From positions 1-20,973 of IMG/VR virus record IMGVR_UViG_2778261696_000009: a stretch of 20,973 bases of DNA, one strand, 5' to 3'. The first letter of the stretch is position 1. Every line of letters starts with the position of its first letter. The notes beneath the pieces were generated by a model, which worked only from the letters and a program-made list of their open reading frames with translations, was not told the origin of the DNA and did no database searches. A program made the translations under genes and the position numbers. This DNA comes from a virus. Its lineage: Duplodnaviria; Heunggongvirae; Uroviricota; Caudoviricetes. This document shows, piece by piece, positions 3,364-20,490 of this stretch.

Positions 3364-3377
3364 GGTGTTGTTCTCCT

Positions 3378-3626: not shown

Positions 3627-3716
3627 GGTCAGCCAGGCACAGGCGACAGCGCGACGGTAAAGGGCAGCGCGTAAGACGGGCGGTACCGCGATTCACTGAC
3701 GTCAGCCTCCGGCAGT

Positions 3717-3998
3717 ATGAAACGCCCGAAAAGAATGCTTGTTACCGGATATTGTTGTCGGAGATGTAAAGGCCTTGCACTGTCAAGAACATCGCGGCGT
3801 CTGTCTCAGGAAGTCACCGAGCGTTTTTATGTGTGCACGGATCCGGGCTGTGGTCTGGTGTTTAAAACGCTTCAGACCATCAACCGCTTCATTGTCCGCC
3901 CGGTCACGCCGGACGAACTGGCAGAAAGCCTGCATGAAAAACAGGAACTGCCGCCAGTACGCTTAAAAACACAATCATATTCGCTGCGTCTGGAATGA
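3717..3998 (+). CDS. delta: Ogr/Delta-family zinc-finger late-gene transcriptional activator (single-domain)
   Basis: Cys4 pattern CRRC...(x22)...CTDPGC, with SRTSR and RFIVRP segments that align by eye with phage P2 Ogr (C..C...ARTSR...KERY.QC....C...RYIVKP). 93 aa as called; an alternative start is the ATG at 3735. Confidence 0.8.
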   Translation: MKRPKRMLVTGYCCRRCKGLALSRTSRRLSQEVTERFYVCTDPGCGLVFKTLQTINRFIVRPVTPDELAESLHEKQELPPVRLKTQSYSLRLE

Positions 3999-4071
3999 GG
4001 GCTGCCGGTTAACACCGGCCGTCGCCGCACACCGTATTTTTATTCTTCAGCATGATGAGAAAGAGATAACG

Positions 4072-4644
4072 ATGGAAAGCACAGCCTTACAGCAGGCCTT
4101 TGACACCTGTCAGAATAACAAAGCAGCATGGCTGCAACGCAAAAATGAGCTGGCAGCGGCCGAACAGGAATATCTGCGGCTTCTGTCAGGAGAAGGCAGA
4201 AACGTCAGCCGCCTGGACGAATTACGCAATATTATCGAAGTCAGAAAATGGCAGGTGAATCAGGCCGCCGGTCGTTATATTCGTTCGCATGAAGCCGTTC
4301 AGCACATCAGCATCCGCGACCGGCTGAATGATTTTATGCAGCAGCACGGCACAGCACTGGCGGCGGCACTGGCACCGGAGCTGATGGGCTACAGTGAGCT
4401 GACGGCCATTGCCCGAAACTGTGCCATACAGCGTGCCACAGATGCCCTGCGTGAAGCCCTTCTGTCCTGGCTTGCGAAGGGGGAAAAAATTAATTATTCC
4501 GCACAGGATAGCGACATTTTAACGACCATCGGATTCAGGCCTGACGCGGCTTCGGTGGATGACAGCCGTGAAAAATTCACCCCTGCGCAGAACATGATTT
4601 TTTCGCGTAAAAGTGCGCAACTGGCATCACGTCAGTCTGTGTAA
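4072..4644 (+). CDS. psu: Psu (polarity suppression protein; capsid decoration / Rho antagonist) of P4-like satellites
   Basis: 190-aa ORF, the length recalled for P4 Psu. Directly downstream of the delta-like gene as in the P4 sid-delta-psu operon (no sid here). GC-rich, helical-looking sequence. Confidence 0.8.
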   Translation: MESTALQQAFDTCQNNKAAWLQRKNELAAAEQEYLRLLSGEGRNVSRLDELRNIIEVRKWQVNQAAGRYIRSHEAVQHISIRDRLNDFMQQHGTALAAALAPELMGYSELTAIARNCAIQRATDALREALLSWLAKGEKINYSAQDSDILTTIGFRPDAASVDDSREKFTPAQNMIFSRKSAQLASRQSV

Positions 4645-4680
4645 AATTCCCCGAAAATCCGCCCGTTTTTACTGAAAAAA

Positions 4681-4710
4681 GCCATGCATCGATAAGGTGC
4701 ATGGCTTTGC
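4681..4710 (+). terminator. Possible terminator hairpin after psu
   Basis: Inverted repeat GCCATGCA-(9-nt loop)-TGCATGGC at 4681-4705, followed by TTT. Modest intrinsic-terminator features. Confidence 0.35.
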
Positions 4711-4735
4711 ATGCGTTTCCCTGCCTCATTTTCTG

Positions 4736-4763
4736 CAGACCGCGCCATTCCCGGCGCGGTCTG
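4736..4763. other. Perfect 11-bp GC-rich inverted repeat (CAGACCGCGCC / GGCGCGGTCTG) with a 6-nt loop
   Basis: Seen directly at 4736-4746 and 4753-4763. Not followed by a T-run, so not a classical terminator. Lies in the psu-cos interval, so it could be a packaging- or protein-binding element. Confidence 0.4.
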
Positions 4764-4808
4764 AGCGTGTCAGTGCAACTGCATTAAAACCGCCCCGCAA
4801 AGCGGGCG

Positions 4809-4827
4809 GGCGTGGCGGGGGGAGCAT
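4809..4827. other. Degenerate cos-like site (P2/P4 cohesive-end-like)
   Basis: GGCGTGGCGGGGGGAGCAT matches the recalled P2/P4 cohesive end GGCGAGGCGGGGAAAGCAC at most positions. It sits where cos lies in P4 (after psu) and coincides with the sharp GC-rich to AT-rich transition. Confidence 0.4.
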
Positions 4828-4902
4828 TGCGCGCTAAGGCTGATATTATAATTTTCTTTAATTCTATTTGGTATTTTGGCTTTATTCGTCAGAAGGAACG
4901 TT

Positions 4903-4937
4903 TAGAAATAGACCACTACAATGGATTGTAGCGGTCT
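4903..4937 (-). terminator. Terminator-like hairpin downstream of the int-RT-partner gene string
   Basis: 12-bp stem AGACCACTACAA / TTGTAGCGGTCT (one mismatch) with loop TGGA at 4910-4937. On the minus strand it is followed by ATTTCTAAA and begins about 10 nt after the partner-gene stop. Confidence 0.45.
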
Positions 4938-4946
4938 GCATGATAT

Positions 4947-5687
4947 CTAGCGTTGCATTTCAGTTACTATGAAATTTTCTTCTGTAATAGAATTCATTAT
5001 CTCAAAGTACAATTCTTCAGGTTGAATAAACGCCAACTCTTTGCAAAGGTTGACAATGGTATCACTATAAGTGATACCCATCCGAGGATTGAAAAGCTCA
5101 AATCTCTTGATGTTTCTTTTGTTTTTTGAGTAAAAGTTTAAAGTGAAATATATTAGCACCTGTCTAAGATCGTAAACACTAAACTTCCTATCTCCTGATT
5201 TTATTTCCACAAGAACATTTGAATAATAAATATCGCCATATGAATTATTTATTACTCCGCATCCATCGAATTGTGGAGACACTTCAATTTGGTTTTCCAT
5301 TCCATATCGAGACAAAATGTTTCTTGCTATTTCCCTTATGGCATTGTACTCAACCATGCTTAAGGGTAGCTTGAAGTTAGAACCGTAAGCGAACCGCTGT
5401 AGATATTCTTTTGTTTTTTCAAAAACAACCTGAAAATCAGCATTATGGAAGATATCATGTGCTGAAAGAATATTTCTGTCTAACGAATCATTCTGTATTG
5501 CCCTATATAAATTAAATGCGCACTCATTAACAAAGACGTTATTTGACCTATTAGCGCAGTCATCTAGAGGAGGATAAACGTCCTCGATGAGACTGCCGTT
5601 AATGATGCGTATGAAATTATTAGCATTTGGAAGCAATTGATTCCAAAATGAAGTGAATTTTCGAGAAAACGTTAATTCAGATATCAT
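4947..5687 (-). CDS. Partner protein of the reverse transcriptase (246 aa, unknown family; possible nuclease-like effector)
   Basis: AT-rich ORF whose ATG overlaps the RT stop as ATGA (5684-5687). No family recognised by eye. Contains GDIYYSNVLVEIKSG, i.e. D-x9-E-x-K in a hydrophobic beta-like context, weakly reminiscent of a PD-(D/E)xK nuclease core. Confidence 0.7.
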   Translation of the reverse strand: MISELTFSRKFTSFWNQLLPNANNFIRIINGSLIEDVYPPLDDCANRSNNVFVNECAFNLYRAIQNDSLDRNILSAHDIFHNADFQVVFEKTKEYLQRFAYGSNFKLPLSMVEYNAIREIARNILSRYGMENQIEVSPQFDGCGVINNSYGDIYYSNVLVEIKSGDRKFSVYDLRQVLIYFTLNFYSKNKRNIKRFELFNPRMGITYSDTIVNLCKELAFIQPEELYFEIMNSITEENFIVTEMQR

Positions 5688-7312
5688 AGCGCATCCTCAA
5701 GATTTCTTGCGGTATGCCTTTTACTTGCCCAATCCCTGTAAATCACCTCTACAAAGTTGAATGTTTTCTTATTATGCTCTCTCCAGTGCCGTCCTTCATC
5801 ACCTAAGATGTAACTGGAAACGATCAATAGTCTTCTCTGCAACGGATGCATTGCAGAGAAATTTTTTTTGATATCAGAAAGCCATGCGTAAGAATTAATT
5901 TTTGCCATTGACTGTGTAACTATGTTCTTGACTAAGATGCTTTCTGGATTGTTATTGTATATTTCACTAAGGATTAGGGTGGATTTTTCTGAATTTTCTT
6001 TTGAGAGCATTCGGGCTACATAGGCTAAGTTGAGCTCAGTACTCAAAATATATGAATCTTGTTTAATTAGTGCAGTTATTTTATCAAGAATAATATCTTT
6101 GGTTTCTGTGCTTAATTTTTGCCAGTTGGAGTTAGCTACTTGAATTATAGTTGTAAATATTGGATATAACTCATGCAAGTTATTAAACATTACTTTGAAA
6201 GCACTACTTATTATTTCATCTGATGTTGCTGAGAATGCCTTTATCAAATGCTTGCTAAAAGATTGGTTAATTTTTGATTTTTGTAACTCACTACTCAGCA
6301 TAGCTAACAAGTCAAAATCTTTTAAAGATTCCTTTATCTCTTCATATTCCTCTATCGCATTTGCTGAGTAAGGATCGAATCTTATAGGAAGACTCATAAA
6401 TTTAGCCTTCATAGGAGATTCTTCATCTTCATCATTACCATGCAACTTAGCTTTAGTTACTGAAAGGAACTCTTCTTTAGTAACAATATTGGTTTTTTGT
6501 TTCTGTAAAGTTAGCCCTTCATTTTCCATCAGTTTTTTACTAAGCAAAGTTAAAATCTTATGAGCATCCTCTCTAGAGTTACAAAAAATAACAAAGTCGT
6601 CGACATAACGCTTATAGTTGATTCTATTCATAGACAATAATTTATCAATAGAATCTAGAGCTAGTTCTGCTAATATTCTAGAGGCAGGACATCCAACTGG
6701 TACTCCATATGATTTTGTTTCACTAAATGTCTGTAGTAATTTCTTGATTTTCCCAGAGTAATCTTTATTGGGGTCGACTCTATCTAACGCATTTTCTAAA
6801 CGGTGGTGATAAATACGCGGATAGAAATCTGCTATATCGCATGTAAGTACATACTTTATTTCATCGTTAGAACATTCAGAGATACTGTCTTCTTGATATT
6901 TTCTCCAAGAGATCTCTTTATCAAAAAGAGAACCATCAGCAAGGTTTGGTTTAAAGCGATATGAATAAACCTGCGTTTTAGTAGATCTATTCCTTTCAAT
7001 ATCATCAGCGATTTTTAAAACTAACCCAAGAAAAAAAGCATTCCAGAATGGATCAATTTGGGTCGCCCACCTGTAACCATAATAACCAATACTTGAAAAG
7101 CTATTAATTATGTTTGGTGGAATCTCGATCCTTTTATTTTCAAAGTCATTAAATGTTTGCATTAATGCAGTTTTTACTTTCTCCTTATCATCTTCAAATA
7201 ACCGACTTTCAAATGGGTAAGGGAAAATATCTGTATCGCCGTGCTTTATAATATTTTCCAATGCAAGCTCAAAGCAATTTTCTAGTTTACTACTATCAAA
7301 CTCGTTACTCAT
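5684..7312 (-). CDS. Reverse transcriptase (Abi/DRT-like defence-associated RT: N-terminal RT domain plus ~250-aa C-terminal helical domain)
   Basis: RT palm motifs in canonical order: LTCDIADFYPRI (motif A-like), GVPVGCPASRILAELAL (motif B-like), YKRYVDDFVIF (motif C, YxDD box). The C-terminal half has no RT motifs and contains GRHWREH (R-x4-H). The ATG overlaps the integrase stop (AATGAGTAA) with AAGGAG 7 nt upstream. AT-rich. Confidence 0.85.
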   Translation of the reverse strand: MSNEFDSSKLENCFELALENIIKHGDTDIFPYPFESRLFEDDKEKVKTALMQTFNDFENKRIEIPPNIINSFSSIGYYGYRWATQIDPFWNAFFLGLVLKIADDIERNRSTKTQVYSYRFKPNLADGSLFDKEISWRKYQEDSISECSNDEIKYVLTCDIADFYPRIYHHRLENALDRVDPNKDYSGKIKKLLQTFSETKSYGVPVGCPASRILAELALDSIDKLLSMNRINYKRYVDDFVIFCNSREDAHKILTLLSKKLMENEGLTLQKQKTNIVTKEEFLSVTKAKLHGNDEDEESPMKAKFMSLPIRFDPYSANAIEEYEEIKESLKDFDLLAMLSSELQKSKINQSFSKHLIKAFSATSDEIISSAFKVMFNNLHELYPIFTTIIQVANSNWQKLSTETKDIILDKITALIKQDSYILSTELNLAYVARMLSKENSEKSTLILSEIYNNNPESILVKNIVTQSMAKINSYAWLSDIKKNFSAMHPLQRRLLIVSSYILGDEGRHWREHNKKTFNFVEVIYRDWASKRHTARNLEDAL

Positions 7313-8489
7313 TCACATTCTCCTTAATAAAAATATAATCTGAATACCACTGCATCATATCACGGCGTTTATCAATATATTGAGCATGATTATACGTACC
7401 TCTAATATTATTCTTATCTATATGAGCAAGCTGTATTTCTATCCAAGCCGAATCATATCCTTTTTCGTGGAGGATAGTAGATAAGGAATGTCGAAATCCA
7501 TGACCAGTAAGTTTTCCACCATAACCAATACGCTTGATAACTTGGTTAATACTCGCCTCACTCATAGGCTTGTTCGGATCGTTCCGCCCCGGAAAAACAT
7601 AACTATACTTCCCTGTCATCATCTTGAGTTCATTTAGCAAATCTAACGCTTGAGTCGACAAAGGCACAAGGTGTGATCTGCGCATTTTCATCCTTTCAGC
7701 AGGAATTTCCCAAATAGCGTTATCTAAATCAAATTCTGACCATAATGCCGCACGTAATTCGATGGTTCTAACACCTGTAATCATGAGCAATTTCGTGGCA
7801 ATCAGGACAAGCCGACTTCCGGTATATCCGTTTAAGGCGCGAAGAAAATCAGGTATCTCATTAGCCTTTAAGAACGGGAAATGATTTGATTGGTGTACAT
7901 TGAGGGCGCTTGAAAGATCCGCAGCAGGGTTAAACTCAGCCCTTCCAGTAGCAATGGCATAGCGGAAAACTTCTGAGCATCGCTGCCGAACTTTGCGCAT
8001 TTTTTCTAATGCACCGCGCTTTTCGATTTTACGCAGCACATTAAGCAGTTCTAGCGGTTTAATCTCTCCCACTGGCCTTGTTCCCACATAAGGAAAAATG
8101 TCGTTCTTAAACGCTTCCATGATGTCTGATGCATATCCCGCCGACCATTTGGTAGACTTCTGTTGATGCCACTCTCTGGCTATCTTTTCGAAGGCGTTCT
8201 CTGACTCTGTTTGCAGAGCCAGCTTTTGCTCTTTTCGAACCTCACTAGGGTTCTTTCCTTCTGCCACAAGTTTTCGAGCTTCATCACGACGGGAACGAGC
8301 ATCAGCAAGAGTGATCGTTGGGTAAACACCAAGCGAGATCATTTTGGGTTTACCGGCATAGCGATAACGAAATCGCCAGCTTTTACTTCCATTTGGCTCT
8401 ACAAGTAAAGACAACCCTTGCCCATCCCCAAGTGTATAGGCTTTAGCTTCAGGTTTAGCACGGCGAATCTGCATATCATTTAGGGGCAT
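7305..8489 (-). CDS. int: P4-type tyrosine integrase (site-specific recombinase)
   Basis: 394 aa. N-terminal arm-binding-like region, then a tyrosine-recombinase catalytic region with R (LMITGVRTIELRA), HGFRHSLST (H-x-x-R) and a C-terminal RGTYNHAQY tyrosine region. Located at the element edge next to the candidate attR. Confidence 0.9.
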   Translation of the reverse strand: MPLNDMQIRRAKPEAKAYTLGDGQGLSLLVEPNGSKSWRFRYRYAGKPKMISLGVYPTITLADARSRRDEARKLVAEGKNPSEVRKEQKLALQTESENAFEKIAREWHQQKSTKWSAGYASDIMEAFKNDIFPYVGTRPVGEIKPLELLNVLRKIEKRGALEKMRKVRQRCSEVFRYAIATGRAEFNPAADLSSALNVHQSNHFPFLKANEIPDFLRALNGYTGSRLVLIATKLLMITGVRTIELRAALWSEFDLDNAIWEIPAERMKMRRSHLVPLSTQALDLLNELKMMTGKYSYVFPGRNDPNKPMSEASINQVIKRIGYGGKLTGHGFRHSLSTILHEKGYDSAWIEIQLAHIDKNNIRGTYNHAQYIDKRRDMMQWYSDYIFIKENVNE

Positions 8490-8541: not shown

Positions 8542-8652
8542 TTAGTACTGGATTCTACTGGAAAGTTATGGACTAATACGAACAGTAAAAACAAAAAATC
8601 TTTTATAAAACAGTGCGGTTATGGATAAATACGGATGTTTGAAGAAGTGGAG

Positions 8653-8670
8653 ATGGTGCCGATAATAGGA
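8653..8670. repeat. Candidate attR core: right copy of the 17/18-nt direct repeat
   Basis: ATGGTGCCGATAATAGGA at 8653-8670 versus ATGGTGCGATAATAGGA at 537-553. It lies ~165 bp beyond the int start. Confidence 0.4.
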
Positions 8671-8727
8671 GTAAAACACTCGATTAATCTCGTGTTAATG
8701 CCATCACCTACGACCATTACTAATTGA

Positions 8728-10092
8728 TTGAATCTTATAGAAAAATCATCATTTTCTATGCGTCACAATCAATTTTCACATTACAAACGCTCCGACACTT
8801 TAGCCGGAGATTTTATGAGATACAAGCCTAACCAATACTTAATCTGTGATTCTTACGGTAACTACTATTTAAGGATCACGCTGCCTGTGTATATGCAGCC
8901 CTTTTTTGAAGGAAAAAGGACGTTTGTCAGAAGTCTACACACAAGTAATCTTCGTGTTGCACGTAGAAAGCGTGATCAGATTGCAGATGAATACCATTGC
9001 TTACGGGAGAGTGTTGCCCCTGTAAACAGCACAATAGAAAACACGCTGGAACTGTTACGCAGTAAGGCTAAATACGCCAAAACAGCTACCAGAGTGCAAG
9101 ATACAGCGTCTTCGTGTCCGTCATTGCTTAAAATTCTTGAAATCTACCTGACAATTAACAGCACGAAGAAGAAGCCAGCCACTTTAGCTAAGGCAAGAAA
9201 AGCGGTAGAGATGTTTCTCTCCTACCGTAAAAAGCCTGATATTGCATTGCAAGATGTAAGCCGCACCACTGTTACAGGCTGGATTGAACACATGCAAAAA
9301 ACTCTTTCACAACAATCAATTGCAAATTATATCAGTCCAATGGCCCAGCTATGGGAATTAGCTTCATCACGTTACCACGATGCGCCAGAAAGGGCGCTCT
9401 CCCCCTGGCGAGGGCATAGGCTTGATGTGGCACAAAGTAGAGAGAGCTACGAGGCATTTTCTAACAAAGAGCTATTGCAGGTGTTGCAAGTATTTTCCGG
9501 TAATTCAGCAGAAAACAAAGAAATGACGGCTTTGTGTCTTATCGGTTTATATACAGGTATGCGGATCAATGAGATAGCAAGTCTCACAATAGACGATGTG
9601 AAAGAGATCGAAGGTGTGCTGTGTTTTGAAATCACACAGGGAAAGACGAAAGCTGCGGCACGTGTTGTGCCTGTGCATAACCTTATCACTCCGTTGGTGT
9701 TGTCGCTGCGTGAAAAGCCTCACAATGGCTTTTTGTTCTATCACGCCAGCATTACAGAACGTGCTGACGGTAAACGCTCTACGTGGCATACACAACGATT
9801 TACAAGAGCTAAACGAAAGGCTTTAGGGGAAAAGGGAACAGAAAGGAAAGTGTTTCATTCTCTGAGACACGGAGTAGCACAGCTTCTTGATCGAAATCAA
9901 ATTCCAGAAGACAGGATCGCCCTTCTCCTGGGCCATACACGCGGCAATACAGAAACATTCCGCACATATAGCAAAAATGCAGCTTCTCCAATAGAGCTTA
10001 AAAAATATATTGAGCTTTTACGCTACCCTGAAATAGAGAAAGGCTTATCAATCAATAAAAAATCAAATTTAAGGCGTAAAACAACGCTATAG
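8728..10092 (+). CDS. Second tyrosine recombinase / phage-type integrase (likely true start at ATG 8815)
   Basis: C-terminal catalytic signatures: YTGMRINEIASL (R), HSLRHGVAQLL (H-x-x-R), LLGHTRG and FRTYSK (Tyr). The in-frame ATG at 8815 has a GGAG RBS 5 nt upstream. Divergent from the P4-type int. Confidence 0.8.
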   Translation: MNLIEKSSFSMRHNQFSHYKRSDTLAGDFMRYKPNQYLICDSYGNYYLRITLPVYMQPFFEGKRTFVRSLHTSNLRVARRKRDQIADEYHCLRESVAPVNSTIENTLELLRSKAKYAKTATRVQDTASSCPSLLKILEIYLTINSTKKKPATLAKARKAVEMFLSYRKKPDIALQDVSRTTVTGWIEHMQKTLSQQSIANYISPMAQLWELASSRYHDAPERALSPWRGHRLDVAQSRESYEAFSNKELLQVLQVFSGNSAENKEMTALCLIGLYTGMRINEIASLTIDDVKEIEGVLCFEITQGKTKAAARVVPVHNLITPLVLSLREKPHNGFLFYHASITERADGKRSTWHTQRFTRAKRKALGEKGTERKVFHSLRHGVAQLLDRNQIPEDRIALLLGHTRGNTETFRTYSKNAASPIELKKYIELLRYPEIEKGLSINKKSNLRRKTTL

Positions 10093-10172: not shown

Positions 10173-10850
10173 CTATTGTTTAAATACTGGCGTTACAACG
10201 TCTTGCCCTGGGCTTTTTTGATTTTTCTGTTCTGTTGTATTTACCTGCATTTTAACCTGGCCTCCTACAGATTTATTTGGTGCTGTTTTTACCGCAATTG
10301 CGCTTGTAGTTGCTTTAGAGACAAGACGGATTTGCTCAAAATCAAGAGTAAACAATAGGCTTTCGCTTGCTTCTTCTTCGTAAGACATGCCAACTAACAC
10401 AACGTTGTCATAATTTTTTAACTCAGTGACAAGTAGGAAAGGTTGGCGACTGTCCATCAACTGATTTAGGTATTCAAGCATAAGCATACGTCGATTGCCG
10501 TTAATTCCAGCATTCTTAATCATATCAGGATTGAGCTTCAATACGGTTTCAGAGATACGCCCTTGTAATGTGAACTTGTTATTCCGTATTTGAACATGAT
10601 CACTAACTTCTGATCCTGATTCGACGGCATAGCTTGTAACGTCCGCATTTCTGCTAACTTTCGTCGATTCCACGCTATCAAATGATAATGCCTGGTAGTC
10701 ATTGTAAGCAGCATTTGCACCACTGCCGAGATTAGAGGTAATGATCGCAAAGCCGTTACCCCCTTTGGTTGTTCTACCGTTGCTATCGTTGCTTGTGCTG
10801 TTGATTTTCGCCTCAGTCGGGCGACCAATGGTTAACGGACCCATTGCCAT
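10173..10850 (-). CDS. Hypothetical protein (225 aa), last gene of the structural-looking operon
   Basis: ORF with AAGGA RBS upstream of the ATG at 10850; Ser/Thr/Asn/Gly-rich N-terminus. Follows the 613-aa gene on the same strand. Function not recognisable by eye. Confidence 0.5.
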   Translation of the reverse strand: MAMGPLTIGRPTEAKINSTSNDSNGRTTKGGNGFAIITSNLGSGANAAYNDYQALSFDSVESTKVSRNADVTSYAVESGSEVSDHVQIRNNKFTLQGRISETVLKLNPDMIKNAGINGNRRMLMLEYLNQLMDSRQPFLLVTELKNYDNVVLVGMSYEEEASESLLFTLDFEQIRLVSKATTSAIAVKTAPNKSVGGQVKMQVNTTEQKNQKSPGQDVVTPVFKQ

Positions 10851-10897
10851 AATTTGTAATCCTTATTTAAGGGGGCTAAACAGCCCCACAGTGATGA

Positions 10898-12739
10898 TTA
10901 ATAGGTTGACCCGCCTGACATAACACCCAGCGTTAATAGCTTGCTAAACTCAGCGGAGGATGCCTTTGATTTGAAGTCGATAAATTCGCTCAATCGTCCG
11001 GTGTCTGATTCGATAGTTAGCGGCACTTCTGCATTTACTTGTAATTCTGGATTGAAGTTAATAACAGGTGCAAAGGTGTAAGAAGGAGCCTTGAAAGCTT
11101 GTTGTGCTGCACTCTGTTTCAGATTTGCAATGTTTTGTCCTTCGAGACTGTATTGATTTACAGCCTGCGCCCCACCTACCGTTTCTTCTGGCATAAACCA
11201 GCTTTTAATAGTGTTAACCAGGGAATTGCTGTTATCTGGCTTAGTTGTTCCGGTGCCAGCGCCTTTATATTGATCAGGAGTGAGATTAGAAAGATTCTGC
11301 TTCATTCCTTCGTTAGATAGTGGCGGTGCATCCCCTAAATTCTTCTGAATAGCTTCCGTCTTCTCGTCGTTTTTCATCAGCCAGTTGATTGTTTTCATTA
11401 CGGCGTTAACCAATCCGCCGATAGCCTCGCCTAATTTGGTAAACATTGGCAGCATTGCAACCATGCTCTTTTTAAACTCTTCAATCACTTTCGGATCAAG
11501 AGATTTCATAAAGCCATCAACAAAGGCGATCCCTTGTGAGTCAGAAAGCCCACTAAGTGCATTATTCAGTTCACGGAATTTAATAACGCTTTCCTGTTGT
11601 GCCTGTGTTACCCAGCGCCCTGATTCTCGTTGTTCTCGTGCTGATTGTTCCACTTCTTTAGCGGAGCGTGTCCAGTATTTAGAGGTGAGCATCAAATCAT
11701 CAGCCAGATCTTCCAGACGACTACCGATTTGTGCATCTGAATAGCCTTTCTTCACCATTCCCTGAACTGCTTTACTAACCAGACCAGCCGGATTATCAGC
11801 AAAGTCTTTTAGATCCTTTTTAGTTAAGAATCCTTCATTCATTAAAGTATTGATGCCGCTATCGCCGCCCTTCCATTCACCTTTGCCTGTTTTTTTATCG
11901 ACTACATATTCAGCCTCATCATAGCTTTTGGTTGCACGCTCACGCACATCTTTCATCTGATCGAGATACTTACGTTTACCTTGATCCCCCATCATTGAAT
12001 CAACGCCGTTTTTGTAGGCCCATTGCTCAATATTGTTCATCTGGTTAACGTCTACACCGCCCAGCTTCGCACGGCTATACAATTCACCCAGCGTTTCAGC
12101 ATTCGCAAAGCTGTTAGTAACAAATTCAGAGGCTTTGCTCATAGCCATATACGTAGCGCCAGCGCCTAAGCCACCCAGCATAACAGCCGCAGCACCGCCG
12201 CCAATACTCCCGCTACCCTTAACAGGTGCATAGGCTTTAGCGTGAGCGTTACGATTGCCATTAATCTTACGTTGTTGCTGTTGTAGGCGTTTCATTTGGC
12301 TATTCATACGTGCCAGACTAATAGCTCCTCTTTCATATTGGAGGGCAATTTCTCTAGCCTGTGCAATAGCTTTATATTGTTCCGCTACAGAAAGGCGGTG
12401 CAATGCACTAATGCTTGATCCAACGTCTAACAGTTTTAAGTCTGCCTTCTCTTTGCGTGCTGCCAGGGCTTTTTGTTCTCTTGCAACTACACGTTGAGCG
12501 GCTAATTGTGCTTTAGCATTGGCTTTATCTGCCTGTGCTTGCTTTTTAGCAATATCGTCTACGTCTTTTTTTGCTTTAGAAGTTGATTGTTTATGTGTCT
12601 TAACACGCAATTCTATATCTTTCACCGCCGCCATTTGTTTACGAAGTTTTTCTACTTCTGCTTTTGCTTTCTCTAATGATGGTCGATCAACCTGGAAGGT
12701 GACAACGTTTGATAAGCGGCTGACGTTAAGTTCTAACAT
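10898..12739 (-). CDS. Large coiled-coil / glycine-rich protein (613 aa), tape-measure-like or scaffold-like
   Basis: N-terminal ~150 aa strongly charged Lys/Ala/Gln-rich heptad-like sequence, then a Gly-rich hydrophobic segment (GSGSIGGGAAAVMLGGLGAGATYMAMS). This architecture is typical of phage tape-measure or internal virion proteins; the assignment is tentative. Confidence 0.6.
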   Translation of the reverse strand: MLELNVSRLSNVVTFQVDRPSLEKAKAEVEKLRKQMAAVKDIELRVKTHKQSTSKAKKDVDDIAKKQAQADKANAKAQLAAQRVVAREQKALAARKEKADLKLLDVGSSISALHRLSVAEQYKAIAQAREIALQYERGAISLARMNSQMKRLQQQQRKINGNRNAHAKAYAPVKGSGSIGGGAAAVMLGGLGAGATYMAMSKASEFVTNSFANAETLGELYSRAKLGGVDVNQMNNIEQWAYKNGVDSMMGDQGKRKYLDQMKDVRERATKSYDEAEYVVDKKTGKGEWKGGDSGINTLMNEGFLTKKDLKDFADNPAGLVSKAVQGMVKKGYSDAQIGSRLEDLADDLMLTSKYWTRSAKEVEQSAREQRESGRWVTQAQQESVIKFRELNNALSGLSDSQGIAFVDGFMKSLDPKVIEEFKKSMVAMLPMFTKLGEAIGGLVNAVMKTINWLMKNDEKTEAIQKNLGDAPPLSNEGMKQNLSNLTPDQYKGAGTGTTKPDNSNSLVNTIKSWFMPEETVGGAQAVNQYSLEGQNIANLKQSAAQQAFKAPSYTFAPVINFNPELQVNAEVPLTIESDTGRLSEFIDFKSKASSAEFSKLLTLGVMSGGSTY

Positions 12740-12773
12740 GCTAATTGTTTCCCTGTATTATGATTGTTGTTTA

Positions 12774-12971
12774 TTATTGTTTTTTAGAGCAATAGTATTG
12801 AATTGCTTCGAAAGTGCTGCACCCAGTCTGAAAGACACGCTGGCGCACATTATTTGCATCAATTTCTAAAAGGCGGCAAAGCGCCGATGTGTTTATAACT
12901 GATTCCTCGCTAATAGCTGCCAGTTCTTTTACAGCCTTAAGAATAAAGGATTGTGAGTTTTCTGTATTCAT
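12774..12971 (-). CDS. Small hypothetical protein (65 aa)
   Basis: ORF between the capsid-like and 613-aa genes on the same strand; weak RBS; no recognisable motif. Confidence 0.35.
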   Translation of the reverse strand: MNTENSQSFILKAVKELAAISEESVINTSALCRLLEIDANNVRQRVFQTGCSTFEAIQYYCSKKQ

Positions 12972-13122
12972 TGGTTTTCTCTCACATATATATTTTTATT
13001 TGGGTTTGTAGACAGTAGAAAAACAAAAAGGGCAAAGAGATTCGTTACTGTATTTGCGCCTACAGGTTAGTTAATCCCTTTACCCTTATTGCCCCGATGG
13101 GGAATCGTCTATTAACGCTTTA

Positions 13123-14154
13123 TTACGCAGCAGATCCGAAGATGATAGCTTGCGGAATGTTGTTTACTGGCAGATAAGATGTCTCAGTAACCACAGATGG
13201 GAATTGGAATTCATCCTTGATTAGATATTGGTGATGCAACACGGCATCTTGACCTAACTCAGCATGACGCACACCAACGCCGCTATGAAGCTGGTAACAC
13301 TGTGCCGCTTTATCCATTACCGGAACAATTGCGAAACCGTTCTCTCCGATGTGAGCAACAATCTCAGGAAACATTGACACATCAATAACAGTGATCCCAC
13401 CAATCTGGAAAGAGTCATAGGCTGGGTTAGAATCAACCATACGGGTAAACAGGGCCGTAGCACTCGCATCGCCTGCATATTTCACCATGTCACTGATCAG
13501 CGGGTTAGATGACAAACCATCAGCAGCAGTGCCAGCAGCAAAGATAATTACACCAGTTCGCTTTGCAGCAAGACCAGACCCCAGCTTTTCACTCTGTAAG
13601 CGCACCGCTTTACGAATAGCAAGGAACGGGTTAACAGTAGTCGATGCAAAGTCGATAGCGGGTACCGTGGTTTTAGCCTGACCGTCGAGGAAGTCGAGAT
13701 CACCTTGTCCGGCATATTCAGATTCAACTTTCAGGCCCAGCAGCGCGGTAATCAGATCCACTTCAACACGGTTTGCGTGTGAACGGTAATGAGCCTCAGA
13801 GAAATCATTAACCGCTACCAGCATAGCATCAGAACGGTTTGGATATTGGCGGCTGTATTGTTCCAGGTCACGAGAAGTAACAGCGTTAATACTGCCGACG
13901 TGTTTCATCTGGAAAAGTTTGTTTGACCATTCCTGACGTTTAGAGGCGTTCCAGTCGCTTTGAGCGTAAGGCGAGGTTTCCCCAGCTACCTGCACAAACT
14001 GATCAATCAGGTCGGTAAGAAGAATGCTGTTTTCTGTATGATATTGCACATCGAACAGATCGAGATTAGTAATCAGGGTATTAAGTGCATTCTCATAAGC
14101 AAATGGAGTTACTACCGCAGTATTAACGCCAAAATATGTTGATAAATCATTCAT
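13123..14154 (-). CDS. Putative major capsid-like protein (343 aa); identity tentative
   Basis: Strong RBS (AAGGAAA, 8-nt spacer). Size and position immediately after a ~127-aa decoration-like gene mirror the lambda-type D-E (decoration, major capsid) arrangement. No direct sequence match could be verified by eye. Confidence 0.55.
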   Translation of the reverse strand: MNDLSTYFGVNTAVVTPFAYENALNTLITNLDLFDVQYHTENSILLTDLIDQFVQVAGETSPYAQSDWNASKRQEWSNKLFQMKHVGSINAVTSRDLEQYSRQYPNRSDAMLVAVNDFSEAHYRSHANRVEVDLITALLGLKVESEYAGQGDLDFLDGQAKTTVPAIDFASTTVNPFLAIRKAVRLQSEKLGSGLAAKRTGVIIFAAGTAADGLSSNPLISDMVKYAGDASATALFTRMVDSNPAYDSFQIGGITVIDVSMFPEIVAHIGENGFAIVPVMDKAAQCYQLHSGVGVRHAELGQDAVLHHQYLIKDEFQFPSVVTETSYLPVNNIPQAIIFGSAA

Positions 14155-14168
14155 TATTATTTTCCTTG

Positions 14169-14552
14169 TTAAGTCGTAGGGATCGCAAGTTCTTCATAAC
14201 CAGCAATTACAAAGCCGAGAGATTGCAGTTTTGCAATAACACTTGCCTTTTCCATGCTGTTAAATTCAATCCCATCTTCAGCCAGAATAACGAAAGTAGG
14301 ATGTGCAACCACTACGCTTTCCTGTCCTTCATAAGCCGGTTCAACTACTACGTGAGCAATATCAGATGCGGTTGTTGCTTTGGTGCCATCGGCTTTCAGC
14401 AAAGCCCCGACAATAAGATCGTCAGTGAGAGGTGAAGCCAGTTTGACGAGGCGATCTTGCAGCACTGGATCAGCAGCGTAAGCTACTACCTTACAGCGTG
14501 AACGGGAGTTATCCGCATTCACTGCTTTTAATTTTCCATATGGGTTAGCCAT
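14169..14552 (-). CDS. Putative head-decoration-like / small structural protein (127 aa); identity tentative
   Basis: RBS AAAGGAAAA embedded in the end of the upstream small gene (tight coupling). Ala/Val/Gly-rich beta-looking sequence; size and position are consistent with a capsid decoration protein. Confidence 0.5.
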   Translation of the reverse strand: MANPYGKLKAVNADNSRSRCKVVAYAADPVLQDRLVKLASPLTDDLIVGALLKADGTKATTASDIAHVVVEPAYEGQESVVVAHPTFVILAEDGIEFNSMEKASVIAKLQSLGFVIAGYEELAIPTT

Positions 14553-14556
14553 AAGA

Positions 14557-14754
14557 TTATTTTCCTTTCAGTTGTTTAATTTTAGATTTAAGGGCATCAG
14601 CAAGACTAACCGCATCAGCCGATTTAAATAATTGAGCAGTGGTAGAACGAAGACTTTCGGGAGTAACTCCCAACAGTGCGGCAACCTTAATGAGGTTTTC
14701 ATCACTAACAATCATCGTTTCCCCGTCTTTGCTGATAATCATTTCTTGTTTCAT
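14557..14754 (-). CDS. Small protein (66 aa from ATG 14754; the track calls a TTG start at 14796), first gene of the structural-looking operon
   Basis: ATG at 14754 is preceded by AGGAAC. Its stop overlaps the RBS of the next gene. Confidence 0.45.
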   Translation of the reverse strand: MKQEMIISKDGETMIVSDENLIKVAALLGVTPESLRSTTAQLFKSADAVSLADALKSKIKQLKGK

Positions 14755-15738
14755 AAATAATGTTCCTGTTAGTGCCAGACAAATAAAAAGCCCCAATGCC
14801 GTAAGAGGTTAATTCTGACCAGCAAAGGGGCTTTAACGTGCGGGCAATTACATAATTGATAAGTTAAACTATAAGAGGATTAAACATATCAGCAAATACA
14901 CTTTTTAAATATACTTGATGATATGCTTAAAGGGTGAATAGATACTCCTGAAAACATGCTCTTAGGAAAACATGCGGAATCAATCAGGAATATCTATTCG
15001 GGGCGCGGTGGCCAACCGCTATCTTTCATGGTGTGGATGCACCAGTCAGATTTTAAGGAATCACTATTCCAATCTACTCACAGATTAAATTTTTAATAAT
15101 GATTAACTACACCAACAGTAATCTACCGTTTCAGAAAATCGTTTTTACAACCAAAGCTTATAGATCCGCATTCTATAAAACCCGTTTTGCTATCAATATT
15201 TCCAAAGTTTATTGCACCATTCTTAGCTAAACTCTCTCTGCTTGCGGCTAACGCTATGCAGATGATTGTTTTTGACAACAACTTAATAGATTATTCTGTT
15301 ACTAACTTCTGTCATTAAATAATAGTTTAATGATGTTAGTAAATAGTTATAAAATATAACTATCAGTGTAAGGCTCTTTAATGTTTTCTGACAAAATAAG
15401 GAGCTTTAGGATAAGCATAGATGAAAAATAATAGCGGGAAGGGCAAGGAGATAACACCTACCCGCTTTTATCAAAATTAAGCACAATGCCTAACAACATT
15501 CATCAACACAACGTAGAAACAATCAACAATCAAAGAGGGAGTTATGATTATTCTAAAACTTCTTGAGAGATGGAAGGTAATATTTGTTAGAGGTTAATGC
15601 CACTCAACCTTTGAGGCTATCACCTTCCATATGCAGGGATTTATGACAGTAGAAGGATTAACACCAACTAAAATCTTTTTATCTACCCCTAAAATTATTA
15701 TATAACAAAATCATTATAAATGCAAATAATTTTCATTA

Positions 15739-17058: not shown

Positions 17059-17727
17059 TTAGAAGGGTAGTGAATCATATATTGTGCTCTCACTTTTGAG
17101 ATCAATTATCAAAGAGTCAAAATCATTTTCACAAAGATAGATATTCTTTGAATCTAATGCTCGTTTTACAAAATCTTCTGTTTCTTCGTGCGGTGGTTTC
17201 TTCTTATCAAGGGAAAGAAGCCAAGTAAAAATTTCGGGCCGCTCAGGGAACTCTGGCTCTTGTGTTTCTTCTTCAACGATGATTTCGGAAACATTCAATA
17301 TTTCATTAGATTCGTCTTCTTTCTCAGAAGGATCAGGTAGTGATGACTCTCCAGGGGGAGTAATATGTGCATCTGTGAATGGTAATGCTTTATAGAGTGA
17401 TGTTTGCCCGTCCCGAGCCTCTACAGAAAGAACTCCCATATCAACAAACATATTTATAATATTGCGAACCTGGCGATCACTAACCATTCCAATATTAGAT
17501 AATGTTTTTTGAGTGGCGTAACATTCTTGCCCTTGTTCATTGAATCCAGCTATATAGCTATAGATTTCAACGGCTGGCAGTGTAGCGGTGTATTCATTAC
17601 CTGACGGTGAGAACCACTTTTTAAACATCTTCAACCACTGCTCAACGACTACATATTTTTGTTTACCATCTTTCTGATTTAGACATTTGGCTTTCGCTTC
17701 GGCAATTGTTTTGATATTTTTGATCAT
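17059..17727 (-). CDS. Winged-helix DNA-binding protein, replication-initiator / replisome-organiser-like (222 aa)
   Basis: AAGGAGG RBS 6 nt upstream of the ATG. Central segment QKTLSNIGMVSDRQVRNIINMFVDMGVLSVEARDG looks like a winged HTH of Rep/DnaD-type initiators, followed by an acidic C-terminal tail. Confidence 0.6.
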   Translation of the reverse strand: MIKNIKTIAEAKAKCLNQKDGKQKYVVVEQWLKMFKKWFSPSGNEYTATLPAVEIYSYIAGFNEQGQECYATQKTLSNIGMVSDRQVRNIINMFVDMGVLSVEARDGQTSLYKALPFTDAHITPPGESSLPDPSEKEDESNEILNVSEIIVEEETQEPEFPERPEIFTWLLSLDKKKPPHEETEDFVKRALDSKNIYLCENDFDSLIIDLKSESTIYDSLPF

Positions 17728-17851
17728 TTAGTTCCTCCTTTGTAAGGACTGTAATTAGTAATTCATTAACAAGTTTTGGAATTGATTTCCCTTCTGCCTT
17801 TGCACGATTTAACAACGCGTTATAAGTTGCAGAATCAAAATTAATATTCAT
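17663..17851 (-). CDS. Ribbon-helix-helix (CopG/Arc/ParG-like) DNA-binding protein
   Basis: N-terminal SATYNALLNRAKAEGKSIPKLVNELL fits a beta-strand plus two helices RHH signature. GGAGAAGGAG RBS upstream. The 3' 65 nt overlap the start of the downstream gene. Confidence 0.55.
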   Translation of the reverse strand: MNINFDSATYNALLNRAKAEGKSIPKLVNELLITVLTKEELNDQKYQNNCRSESQMSKSERW

Positions 17852-17874
17852 TTGGTTTTCTCCTTCTCCTGTTA

Positions 17875-18057: not shown

Positions 18058-18180
18058 TAATTAACCTCCTATTCTATTTGGTTAAAAGAAAAAGACACCT
18101 TGCAAGCCTCTTGGGCTTCAAAGTGCGGTGCATTGGTTTAATTATTTAGAGGATAGGAATGTTTTCCTGTCCCTAATATT

Positions 18181-18209
18181 ACTTTACCATAACTAAAGGC
18201 TTTTGTCAA
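18181..18209 (-). promoter_or_regulatory. Candidate sigma70 promoter for the minus-strand regulatory operon (TTGACA-N17-TAAAGT)
   Basis: On the minus strand: -35 TTGACA (plus 18204-18209), 17-nt spacer, -10 TAAAGT (plus 18181-18186). A dyad AGGAA-N4-TTCCT at 18155-18168 lies just downstream and could be an operator. Confidence 0.35.
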
Positions 18210-18542
18210 CCCCCGCCCATAAAATATTGATCATTTTTCAGTATGTTATGATTTTGCTTAGCAATTCGTGCTCTTCTGTGTGATGCTATTCTTCCTTATT
18301 CTCTAAAACGCGTTCTAACGAGGTTTTGATAAAAACAATACATTCCCTTATGTAATGACAGTTTAGCTCGCCAGAGGTTTATTTAAGGGGCTTATTTTGT
18401 ATTTGTTAGGTATATGAAAAGGAGATGATAGATAAACTCTAATTTCAGACACCTTATAAAATACCTGTAAAGCTCCTCAGAAGCTCTATAATGAGCTAAT
18501 CTATTACCGCTAAGGTTTCCCTGCCTTATATACGTTTAGCTC

Positions 18543-18809
18543 GCCTACGGCTTGATTTAAGCGGTAGAAACTTATTTAACCTTCAACTACTAAAACCATT
18601 CTTTCTTTTTTGTTTGTTGTTGGTTGTTGTCTGTGTCTATGTGCTAACATCGCTAACGCGTAGCACACAAGGTTATTGCACTCGTCAGAGTATTGCACAA
18701 TAGATTTTCTCTTAAATAGATTGATGATCGTTAGATTGGCGTAAGCCTCATCAATGGAACTATTGAAGCGCACAGCGCAAGACTATTTAGCCTTACGCAA
18801 GCCGTAGGC
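18543..18809. repeat. Perfect 12-bp inverted repeat pair (GCCTACGGCTTG / CAAGCCGTAGGC) flanking ~240 bp
   Basis: GCCTACGGCTTG at 18543-18554 and its exact reverse complement at 18798-18809; flanking bases extend the match imperfectly. A related direct repeat GTTTAGCTCGCC occurs at 18361-18372 and 18534-18545. Confidence 0.5.
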
Positions 18810-18893
18810 TATTTGCACATAGTAGATTACATATTCGTTGTGAGCGGCATTAGCGAACATAGATCTACTAACTAACATCAACAAACAAAAACT
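18607..18893. repeat. Imperfect ~55-bp inverted repeat pair (TTTTTGTTTGTTG... arms)
   Basis: 18607-18660 versus the reverse complement of 18836-18893: the first 13 nt are identical (TTTTTGTTTGTTG), then partial identity including CTATGT and CGCTAA. Confidence 0.4.
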
Positions 18894-19040
18894 ATGTGTT
18901 ATGACAAGCAGTCTAACGACTAACACTCTAACTTGTGCAAGGTTCTGGCGAATGCCAATAGATTAAGGGTATAATTATTCTTATAAAGATAAAAAAGAAT
19001 TATATTATATAGTTTAATTGTAGTTTAATTATAGTATTGT

Positions 19041-19140
19041 CGGAAATCATTTCCTAGGTGATAGGAACTCATTTCCTAGGTAGGTAGGAAACCACTTCCA
19101 CGGTTATTTCCTAAATAGATCGGAACTCATTTCCCAGGTG
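19041..19140. repeat. Iteron array: 4-5 tandem ~22-bp repeats with a palindromic core GGAAATCATTTCC
   Basis: Units at 19041-19060 (cGGAAATCATTTCCtaggtg), 19063-19082 (aGGAACTCATTTCCtaggta), 19086-19105 (aGGAAACCACTTCCacggtt), a partial unit at 19106-19118, and 19121-19140 (cGGAACTCATTTCCcaggtg). Each carries the dyad GGAA-N5-TTCC. Confidence 0.6.
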
Positions 19141-19646
19141 TTATTTATACTTATCGGGTATCAGACTTGATAGGGGTAGCTCACAGTGACCTACCGTTAC
19201 ATCCAATCATCACATAGCATCTGTGCAATGATCTTCTAAAAGTGTTTCTTGCTACCAAAATTAAACATCTAAAACAGGCTTAAATTCAATGTAATTGATG
19301 ATTAATCCCTGTGTAATTCCTACGTAAAAATCCAATGAAAAGTAGCTTAAAAAGTGCAATGTTAGCTTTCTTCACTTTTACATCACTTTCGCAAAGCCTT
19401 GTGTAATACGGCTTACAGAGCACTATCAGAAATTGTTGATTAAAAATCAATCTATTATTTGTCGAACAAGTTTCCTTTAATGCAACAAAAAATTATTTTT
19501 TCAAAATAAACACACTATTTAATAGCTTGCTAATTTTACCAAAATGTAACTACATGATTCTCATGCAAGACGTGTAGTGATAAAGCAGGCTAAATCACCA
19601 CACTAAAAACCTTCGAATTTCGTAGTGAAAAAAGTCCTTTACACAC

Positions 19647-19689
19647 CTAATCAACACGATCAATAATCACTACACACAAATCAACACAG
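19647..19689 (+). promoter_or_regulatory. Direct AATCAACAC repeats immediately upstream of the serine recombinase gene
   Basis: AATCAACAC at 19649-19657 and 19679-19687, with ATCAATAATCAC between. Position suggests a promoter/operator or recombinase binding site. Confidence 0.3.
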
Positions 19690-19696
19690 AAGGAAA

Positions 19697-20254
19697 ATGA
19701 AAATGGCTAATATTGGATACATTAGGGTATCGACTGTGCAACAAAACACAGACCGTCAATTAGCTGGAGTAACTCTTGATAAAGTCTTTGAAGATAAAGC
19801 GTCAGGCAAGAACACTCAGCGCCCACAGTTTGAGGCAATGATGAACTATGTGCGGGAGGGTGACGTGTTACACGTCCATAGTATTGATCGCCTTTGTCGT
19901 AATACAGCCGACCTTCTGGCAACGGTTGAGCAATTAACAGAGCGCGGCGTGTCTGTGCATTTCCATAAAGAAGACTTTAAGACAGGGAAGAACTCTCCCG
20001 CAGGGAATATGATGCTCACAGTGCTTGCAGCAGTGGCACAAATGGAACGTGAAATGATGCTTGAGCGGCAGCGTGAGGGGATCGCCGCAGCTAAGGCCGC
20101 TGGACGTATAGCAAAACGTGGTAATGGAAAAGCAATTGATCGAGCGGGAATTGTTGCCGCTCTCGCGAATGGTGGATCAATTCGGAGCGTAGCAAAAGAT
20201 TTCAGTGTCAGCACACAGACGGTGCAACGTATCAAGAAAGAGCAGGAAGCGTAA
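19697..20254 (+). CDS. Serine recombinase (resolvase / DNA invertase family)
   Basis: N-terminal IGYIRVSTVQQNTDRQ contains the catalytic Ser in the Y-x-R-V-S-T context typical of resolvase/invertases. C-terminal GGSIRSVAKDFSVSTQTVQRIKK is an HTH. ~185 aa. The more likely start is the second ATG at 19703 (AGGA RBS). Confidence 0.85.
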   Translation: MKMANIGYIRVSTVQQNTDRQLAGVTLDKVFEDKASGKNTQRPQFEAMMNYVREGDVLHVHSIDRLCRNTADLLATVEQLTERGVSVHFHKEDFKTGKNSPAGNMMLTVLAAVAQMEREMMLERQREGIAAAKAAGRIAKRGNGKAIDRAGIVAALANGGSIRSVAKDFSVSTQTVQRIKKEQEA

Positions 20255-20490
20255 TGCCTCCTGATATTTGAGAATTGTCGCTGCGTGGACCTGACGCCGC
20301 TGATCTTCGCGTTAAACATTGATCACGTCTGCGCCGATTTCAGAGAAAAAGACAGTAACTGAACTCACTATGAAGGCTAAACGTATCTTTACACTTGATG
20401 AAAACGTTCAAAAAACAACCTAACCCCAAAATTCAACAAATTGCAACACATTGTTTTTTAAAAGAAAATTAAATCTACATCAAATATTGG

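Follow-up and report, generated by a model that had tools for sequence, protein, structure and literature searches.

Introduction

Most of the detailed knowledge on satellites of strictly virulent phages comes from one system, the PLEs of Vibrio cholerae, which parasitize the myovirus ICP1; PICMIs from marine vibrios and satellites from Streptococcus thermophilus have also been reported. PLEs encode their own tape measure protein (TMP), chaperone and baseplate hub, sharing 20, 20 and 41% identity, respectively, with the ICP1 proteins, and these are selectively built into chimeric tails (PMC12987554). The authors of that study remarked that a tape measure protein had not been reported from any other satellite, and they listed putative tmp genes in other elements. 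ICP1 in turn encodes Odn, in which a PLE RepA-like domain (42% identity) is fused to a T5orf172 nuclease and which cuts the PLE origin (PMC8263062). Here, we analyzed a 20,973-nt stretch of DNA (the whole of positions 1 to 20,973 of the Caudoviricetes IMG/VR record IMGVR_UViG_2778261696_000009, hereafter the window), in which a 12.9-kb integrative island carries a six-gene operon on the minus strand (10173–14754) encoding homologs of phage head and tail proteins.

The likeness of this island to PLE, for which we rely on published descriptions, is a functional analogy, the hosts (Enterobacterales for the island and V. cholerae for PLE) and the helpers being different. Each is an integrative island linked to a large virulent myovirus and has its own tape measure protein and baseplate-core protein, which are diverged homologs of the helper proteins (29% and 49–53% identity for the island; 20% and 41% for PLE, PMC12987554). 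Both also combine an iteron origin with a Rep protein whose DNA-binding domain was captured by the phage into a T5orf172-type nuclease, which in the present case is a prediction; the phage chimera here contains two Rep DNA-binding domains with 88–99% identity, whereas Odn contains one with 42% identity. A tail assembly chaperone is present in PLE, but none is recognizable in the island. Moreover, although the ICP1 capsid protein is of the same lineage as the phi92-type capsid protein, PLE remodels the ICP1 capsid protein via the external scaffold TcaP, whereas the island encodes a capsid protein of its own.

In this latter respect, the island resembles the cf-PICIs (for example EcCIEDL933), which make the shell from their own HK97-fold capsid protein and obtain the remaining virion parts from the helper, as we propose for the island. 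Different from the cf-PICIs, which carry portal, protease, head-tail adaptor and connector, terminase and HNH genes and steal only tails (PMC10085698), the island has only a capsid gene, a putative decoration gene and a small gene for the head, and has tail-core genes in addition. Tail genes are among the components disallowed by SatelliteFinder's cfPICI model, so this program would probably not call the island, and satellite-finding tools may miss the whole family for the same reason. A helper-capsid homolog encoded by a satellite within a morphogenesis operon is also known from SaPIbov5, whose Ccm, a homolog of the capsid protein of the helper phi12, fills the pentamers and makes the capsids small and isometric (PMC8569155). 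By analogy, the 343-aa protein of the operon could act comparably to Ccm. The host and helper of SaPIbov5 (a Staphylococcus siphovirus) are unrelated to those considered here, however, and the island capsid protein has a co-evolving decoration-like partner, which suggests that the island makes a whole shell rather than vertices only.

On the evidence presented below, the operon probably serves to hijack virions on behalf of an integrative 12.9-kb satellite of Stephanstirmvirinae-type myoviruses. A more far-reaching proposal, for which we see the case as evenly balanced, is that the island represents an undescribed satellite family of Enterobacterales and an Escherichia coli counterpart of the PLE–ICP1 system, which replaces the shell and the tail core and steals the portal, terminase, sheath, tube, baseplate and fibres, while its helpers have answered with a dual-Rep-domain nuclease and cassettes have been shuffled in the arms race. 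No description of this satellite family was found in the literature searched, which is not proof of its novelty.

Results

Layout of the operon

The initial annotation, made from the sequence alone, had described a structural-looking operon of six co-oriented and tightly coupled genes. Six co-oriented open reading frames (ORFs) on the minus strand were confirmed at 10173–14754. The first gene is present as described, except that it encodes 65 rather than 66 aa when read from its ATG (14557–14754); position 14796, given before as its end, corresponds to an upstream TTG that would yield a protein of 79 aa. The intergenic gaps, in gene order, are 4, 14, 151, 34 and 47 nt. Thus, the genes are tightly coupled except where a gap of 151 nt parts the capsid gene from the tail genes, and this gap divides the operon into a head cassette (65, 127 and 343 aa) and a tail cassette (65, 613 and 225 aa). 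Judged from its homologs, the operon is half head and half tail, a division that had not been seen before. On the identical chromosome of E. coli EC12 (NZ_CP060933), RefSeq annotates the same six genes, five of them as hypothetical and one as a phage baseplate protein. The full-length conservation of the operon genes across genera, together with dN/dS values of 0.09–0.21 where dS was unsaturated, which reflect purifying selection, indicates that these genes are real.

Tail cassette

The 613-aa protein (10898–12739, minus strand) is identified by its homologs as a tape measure protein of the contractile-tail type. It matched the TMP family phrog_16051 (E value of 3.4e-34), Phi92_gp134 in PDB entry 21vq (1.5e-22) and the annotated tape measure proteins of Justusliebigvirus PHB05, Eryne and other phages. 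Compared to PHB05 gp126, its N-terminal 33 residues are 42% identical and its residues 84–455 are 29% identical. The Gly-rich hydrophobic segment noticed earlier in this protein is present (GSGSIGGGAAAVMLGGLGAGATYMAM), and the part then read as a coiled coil is an N-terminal region rich in Lys, Ala and Gln. When 50,697 phage records were searched by tblastn with this protein, 134 were matched, and those listed are all genomes of about 150 kb of the Phapecoctavirus/Justusliebigvirus type, i.e. the Stephanstirmvirinae type; the TMP version of the Klebsiella islands matches phages of this type at 1e-80. A tube-initiator gene lies downstream of the 613-aa gene, and upstream of it there is only a 65-aa ORF (12774–12971, minus strand) without chaperone similarity. 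The latter has positional homologs in the family members L002, L006 and L011–L018 (L numbers denote records of our survey, see below), but no match in the family, PDB or defence libraries and no similarity to the phage 57-aa protein gp125 encoded in the same position.

The 225-aa protein (10173–10850, minus strand) is, on the evidence of its sequence, a tail-tube initiator (Dit-like baseplate protein) homologous to phi92 gp135 and PHB05 gp127. It matched Dit_like (PF21821) at 1.2e-27 with 97 bits against a cut-off of 24.2, and in PDB it matched Phi92_gp135 (7.4e-54), the tube initiator of PhiTE (3.5e-10) and the tube initiator gp17 of Pam3 (6.6e-4). It shares 49–53% identity with the Stephanstirmvirinae proteins and 61–76% with the versions of other islands, and its gene contains patches with 82–88% nucleotide identity to Stephanstirmvirinae phages, in which the homologous gene comes directly after the tape measure gene.

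Head cassette

The 343-aa protein (13123–14154, minus strand), which had been called capsid-like from its size and position, can now be assigned as a major capsid protein with the HK97 fold, of the lambda gpE (Phage_cap_E) lineage and distantly homologous to the phi92/PHB05 capsid protein. While the window protein itself has no Pfam match, 10 of its 15 aligned relatives (42–83% identical) match PF03864 (Phage_cap_E), with a best E value of 1.6e-8, and the protein matches the major head protein family phrog_29 at 5.5e-5. Its AlphaFold2 (AF2) model is of low confidence, with a predicted local distance difference test (pLDDT) score of 52 overall and 70–84 in the A-domain region. Nevertheless, the model was used, because every top match was a capsid protein: the top 14 Foldseek matches in PDB are all phage capsid proteins (E values of 3e-7 to 2e-3, TM scores of about 0.4–0.47), led by ICP1 (8g1r, 3.3e-7) and including PhiTE, Bas63, Sf14, P1 and Chi. 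Profile alignment by hhalign against PHB05 gp116 gave a probability of 81% and an E value of 1.2e-5 over 235 collinear columns, with near-identical motifs in the two families (LITNLDLFDVQYH and IDFASTTVNP). The PHB05-type phage capsid protein belongs to the phi92/PhiTE/ICP1 lineage. Hence a capsid fold was found, and the operon proteins match those of phages rather than those of a non-viral system.

The 127-aa protein (14169–14552, minus strand) is tentatively assigned as a head decoration protein. The initial annotation had called it decoration-like, and its place and size agree with this, since the phage decoration gene gp115 (130 aa) also lies directly upstream of the capsid gene. In sequence the likeness is weak: PHROGs searches gave phrog_2680 (head decoration, 0.068) and phrog_4146 (0.018), pairwise BLAST against the phage decoration protein gave an E value of 0.003 over 23 aa, and hhalign gave a probability of 2%. 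The AF2 model (pLDDT of 43) was too poor for a fold search. Profile searches of PDB gave SPOP matches only, which were judged spurious.

For the first gene of the cassette, encoding the 65-aa protein at 14557–14754 (minus strand), positional homologs of 64–74 aa were found in the family. In six members, they have a common C-terminal pattern, L..(R/K)(I/L)K.L.(K/Q)GK, resembling the C-terminus of phage gp114. We speculate that this protein may be a small scaffold-like factor. In the island of Yersinia massiliensis, the gene of about 70 aa is replaced by a 96-aa ORF (L020:9148–9438), which shares 40% identity with the first 91 residues of the scaffold-like phage protein gp114 (E value of 7e-13). 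This similarity hints that the opening gene of the cassette is descended from the helper scaffold or that its product interacts as the scaffold does.

Relationship to Stephanstirmvirinae phages

In PHB05, the decoration gene gp115 (130 aa) and the capsid gene gp116 (333 aa) are followed, after further genes, by the 57-aa gene, the tape measure gene gp126 (660 aa) and the tube initiator gene gp127 (238 aa). The island operon keeps this gene order, minus everything between the capsid and 57-aa positions. The structural module of the Stephanstirmvirinae (phi92 gp124, gp134 and gp135; PHB05 gp115, gp116, gp126 and gp127) thus represents the source lineage with the same relative order; about 20 more head and tail genes lie between and around these genes in the phages, whereas the island keeps a divergent subset. 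Solved phi92 structures contain homologs of both the 613-aa and the 225-aa protein. Based on these comparisons, virulent Stephanstirmvirinae phages (phi92/phAPEC8-like myoviruses of 150 kb) are the source of the operon genes and the probable helpers.

Two further patches lie outside the operon. Positions 17315–17632 share 93.6% identity with phages Mt1B1_P17, muut, inny and BI-EHEC, and positions 17699–17865 are 98% identical to PaulScherrer (Bas60) and VEcB. Such identities indicate that the island and these phages exchanged DNA recently.

Boundaries and gene content of the island

An exact 21-nt direct repeat bounds the 12.9-kb island. The distal attachment (att) repeat, GATGGTGCCGATAATAGGAGT, is at 8652–8672, and the 3' end of tRNA-Thr(CGT), which lies about 605 nt past the end of the window (approximately 21578–21598 in window numbering), forms the second copy; in record L001, the two repeats are at 15053–15073 and 27979–27999. 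From the distal end, the island encodes a tyrosine integrase, the six-gene operon, five small genes after a 940-nt gap, a Rep-like winged-helix protein, a 62-aa ORF, a 60-aa gene and, after a 1.6-kb gap with four iterons, a serine recombinase.

The integrase (8728–10092, plus strand; RefSeq start at 8815) consists of DUF6538, a SAM-like domain and a catalytic domain (Pfam Phage_integrase 1.5e-17, DUF6538 4e-9, phrog_1 4e-33), and every member of the family ends in the same integrase type. The serine recombinase, of the resolvase/invertase family, lies at the tRNA-proximal end (19697–20254, plus strand; Pfam Resolvase 1.1e-38, phrog_125 2.3e-62); Klebsiella-type islands have a 186-aa tyrosine recombinase in its place.

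Neither the island nor any of the surveyed family members was found to encode a terminase, portal, protease, sheath, tube or lysis protein, as judged from ORF content, Pfam and PHROGs. This agrees with the earlier remark that no terminase, portal or tail-fibre genes were visible: among the island ORFs, only the integrase and the 613-aa protein exceed 343 aa, which leaves no ORF for a portal, large terminase or fibre. The 99-, 81-, 127b-, 89- and 60-aa proteins and both 65-aa proteins had no assignment in Pfam or PHROGs, and none of the small island proteins had a match in PADLOC.

Distribution and cassette exchange

To survey the family, contigs encoding homologs were collected and one genome per species was scanned. 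The same architecture was found in Escherichia, Klebsiella, Citrobacter, Buttiauxella, Phytobacter, Kluyvera, Scandinavium, Raoultella and Yersinia, at tRNA-Thr or tRNA-Gly, the latter being the site of some sister islands. Kosakonia is represented by one 5.2-kb contig, whose gene order was not part of the architecture comparison, and capsid homologs were also named from Cronobacter, Pluralibacter and Enterobacter. Altogether, the family was traced in at least 12 genera of Enterobacterales. The family core consists of a recombinase, an iteron gap, small regulators, a replication slot and small genes, followed by the genes for the proteins of about 70 aa and 125–128 aa, the capsid protein, the protein of about 62 aa, the tape measure protein and the integrase. 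Only the E. coli and Phytobacter versions include the tube initiator. A search of 5,426 complete E. coli genomes matched the operon in 572, with at most three island copies in any one genome; in 141 of these the match extended over at least 80% of its length, and in the remainder over one half only.

In the island variant L023, the tape measure protein and the tube initiator are 98–100% identical to those of the window, while the capsid protein is 21% identical; in L021, by contrast, the capsid protein is 99% identical and the tape measure protein 28% identical. This contrast indicates independent exchange of the two cassettes, each as a co-adapted unit. Consistent with such units, the 127-aa gene swaps between islands along with the capsid gene, and the first 65-aa gene in L023 diverges along with both. 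Cassette breakpoints lie around the 65-aa gene between the capsid and tape measure genes (window 12725–13040).

Rep-like protein, iterons and a chimeric phage nuclease

The Rep-like winged-helix DNA-binding protein (17059–17727, minus strand) has 222 aa as annotated; its true start may be Met34, which would give a protein of 189 aa, like allele P0102 from sister islands of the same architecture. It matched the replication initiation family phrog_270 (3.6e-6), a DnaD-like family (2.6e-5) and, below the cut-off, Pfam HTH_36 (5.5e-5). In other family members, the replication slot is occupied by a superfamily 2 (SF2) helicase or by another winged helix-turn-helix protein. Four 22-nt iterons of the GATAGGAACTCATTTCCTAGGT type (19038–19139) form a repeat array in the 1.6-kb gap and are a candidate origin or Rep-binding site. 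Arrays occur at the corresponding place in the long gap of each island (L021:8302–8440, L022:8589–8731 and L002:5080–5292), with the ACAGAAAACTGTTA core in L021 and L022 and other arrays in L002; the arrays that go with the two Rep alleles are of the GGAACTCATTTCC type and the ACAGAAAACTGTTA type. The array sequence changes with the DNA-binding allele of Rep, which supports the iterons as Rep targets.

The Mt1B1_P17 match of 17315–17632 falls within a phage counterpart of this protein. QNJ49226.1, a 328-aa protein of phage Mt1B1_P17 (L009:2634–3620), is composed of three parts. Residues 1–105 share 99% identity with the N-terminal domain of P0102; residues 119–210 are 88% identical to the DNA-binding domain of the window Rep, of which residues 30–122 are 88–90% identical to this second domain in the phage chimeras; and residues 230–326 match the endonuclease family phrog_681 (2.4e-18), MUG113 (4.4e-4) and T5orf172 (0.037). 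Judging from these domains, the protein appears to be an analogue, with dual specificity, of the ICP1 anti-satellite nuclease Odn. It occurs in four distinct phages (six records), namely Mt1B1_P17, muut, inny and BI-EHEC, a patchy spread that would fit a counter-defence gene.

That the phage encodes a predicted counter-nuclease implies that the island harms the phage, and this is also what would be expected if the island acted mainly in anti-phage defence, with the capsid, tape measure and tube-initiator homologs serving as dominant-negative decoys that poison phage virions and the island itself remaining unpackaged. Defence by interfering with virion assembly is known, as in tail-assembly blockers and Rta of PLE11 (PMC12987554), and the divergent island homologs retain short motifs identical to phage proteins. 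Pure defence, however, leaves the exchangeable co-adapted sets, that is, the shell set (capsid protein and its co-evolving 127-aa partner) and the tail-core set, unexplained, as well as the replicon, the integrase, the att sites and the spread over genera and two tRNA sites. We therefore consider this explanation unlikely, and it overlaps with virion hijacking, since defence and transduction coexist in PLE.

Discussion

Proposed mode of virion hijacking

We propose the following course of events for the island as a virion-hijacking satellite. The island would integrate at tRNA-Thr or tRNA-Gly by means of its tyrosine integrase and stay silent until the cell is infected by a Phapecoctavirus, a Justusliebigvirus or a phi92-like virulent myovirus, upon which it would replicate from its own iteron origin via the Rep-like protein. 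The head cassette would then supply a satellite-specific shell, which would assemble on the portal, scaffold/protease and terminase of the helper, presumably into a capsid with room for about 13 kb. In the contractile tail of the helper, the core would be exchanged for the products of the tail cassette (the tape measure protein, the tube initiator and the 65-aa protein), with the helper still providing the sheath and tube as well as the fibres and the remaining baseplate, so that chimeric tails would form as in the PLEs of V. cholerae. Contact with helper proteins may be made through the capsid motifs common to island and phage and, more speculatively, through the gp114-like C-terminal motif of the 64–74-aa proteins. 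The steps of this scheme that we infer from the gene content and its relationships are induction by the phage, recourse to the portal and terminase of the helper, formation of small capsids and of chimeric tails, transduction, and interference with the helper.

Several points weigh against this proposal. Excision, replication, packaging and transfer of the island are known to us only by inference, and the IMG/VR matches are mostly uncultivated viral genomes (UViGs) with isolate-genome-style identifiers, which we took as prophage-style predictions, plus one long metagenome contig; none is virome-particle-like. Neither a small terminase nor a proven pac site was found in the island. The capsid proteins of island and phage share only about 23% identity, so that the fit of the former to the helper portal and scaffold is an assumption, and the decoration assignment of the 127-aa protein is weak. 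The island TMP is just 46–47 aa shorter than that of the phages (659–660 aa), a change in length that offers no obvious gain, and the tube initiator, being missing from Klebsiella-type islands, is not essential to the family. Finally, the Rep function is deduced from sub-threshold domain matches and iteron co-variation, and the matches of the nuclease domain to MUG113 and T5orf172 are below the Pfam cut-offs.

Other satellites and prophages

Since the island has its own HK97-fold capsid protein, it might instead be a variant of the cf-PICIs that exploits temperate phages, its likeness to the Stephanstirmvirinae reflecting shared ancestry of structural genes only; putative tmp genes have been reported in some cf-PICIs, according to the legend of Extended Data Fig. 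10 of PMC12987554. The cf-PICI core (portal, head-tail adaptor/connector, terminase, HNH and prohead protease; PMC10085698) was not found in the island, however. In addition, the phage records matched by the TMP are confined, among those listed, to virulent myoviruses, and the DNA patches with 93–98% identity and the chimeric nuclease tie the island directly to the Stephanstirmvirinae. Accordingly, we regard a variant of this kind as very unlikely. Membership of the cf-PICIs proper was rejected, as the island has no core component, none of its ORFs could accommodate a portal or large terminase, and profile searches gave no match.

The initial annotation had left open whether the locus was a capsid-encoding satellite or a small, atypical prophage. 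The first is supported by the capsid fold, the bounded island, the missing functions and the conservation across genera. A decayed prophage remnant with functionless structural genes, as might be suspected from phage structural genes without the remaining virion module in an island adjoining another mobile element at a known integration hotspot, is hardly credible, because the same reduced gene set is conserved in many genera under purifying selection and so is not a product of decay, neither the six ORFs nor the att repeats are disrupted, the island occurs in about 10% of complete E. coli genomes, and intact islands exchange head and tail alleles. A tailocin or gene transfer agent was ruled out by the missing sheath and tube, a PICI by the absence of PICI markers, and a P4-like satellite by the finding that the Psu-Delta-Sid operon, the alpha primase and the P4-type integrase belong to the neighbouring element at 1030–8489.

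Significance

Phages of the phAPEC8-/phi92-like group are popular candidates for phage therapy, and members in the BASEL collection grow on E. coli K-12. If virion hijacking by the island is true, about one in ten sequenced E. coli genomes would carry a PLE-like element aimed at these phages, which could explain strain-specific resistance to them as therapeutic agents. It would also provide a tractable system in a model organism for satellite-encoded capsids and chimeric tails, and counter-defence by an origin-directed nuclease would have evolved independently, here with dual specificity.

Further features of the window

A 62-aa ORF that is missing from RefSeq (17663–17851, minus strand) overlaps the annotated start of the Rep-like gene and has a weak ribbon-helix-helix-like signal (phrog_36888, 1.8e-4). 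It is identical in 52 of 53 aa to bas60_0101 of the virulent phage PaulScherrer (Bas60), and homologs are found in Citrobacter and Raoultella islands; bas60_0101 may be a captured satellite regulator.

Downstream of the serine recombinase gene, an 85-nt noncoding stretch common to Phapecoctavirus genomes (20258–20340) shows 81% identity with a 25-nt exact core. Its phage counterpart, also noncoding, spans the inner edge of the 309-bp terminal duplication in the KKP 3954 record and lies 273–357 nt from the start of the WPEC4 record. With the phage ends taken as in the deposited records, we hypothesize that this stretch is a candidate packaging signal or its mimic.

Two long gaps without convincing ORFs lie at 14755–15738 (0.94 kb, upstream of the operon) and 18058–19696 (1.6 kb, upstream of the early genes). 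Both are positionally kept in the E. coli and Klebsiella relatives checked, and the sequence of the first varies between E. coli variants. In the window, no RNA family was found by an Rfam scan, a promoter and terminator scan gave results no better than shuffled sequence, and the T4-type late promoter motif was not enriched.

A truncated P4-like satellite at 1030–8489, with an alpha primase, Psu and a P4-type integrase, is unrelated to the island and lies in tandem with it at one tRNA-Thr site. Its hotspot contains a DRT8-type defence pair, consisting of a reverse transcriptase (5684–7312; PADLOC Drt8, 4.9e-166) and a 246-aa PDDEXK protein (4947–5687; 5.5e-69), and the GC content changes abruptly within the element, being about 60% in the primase but about 33% in the defence genes.

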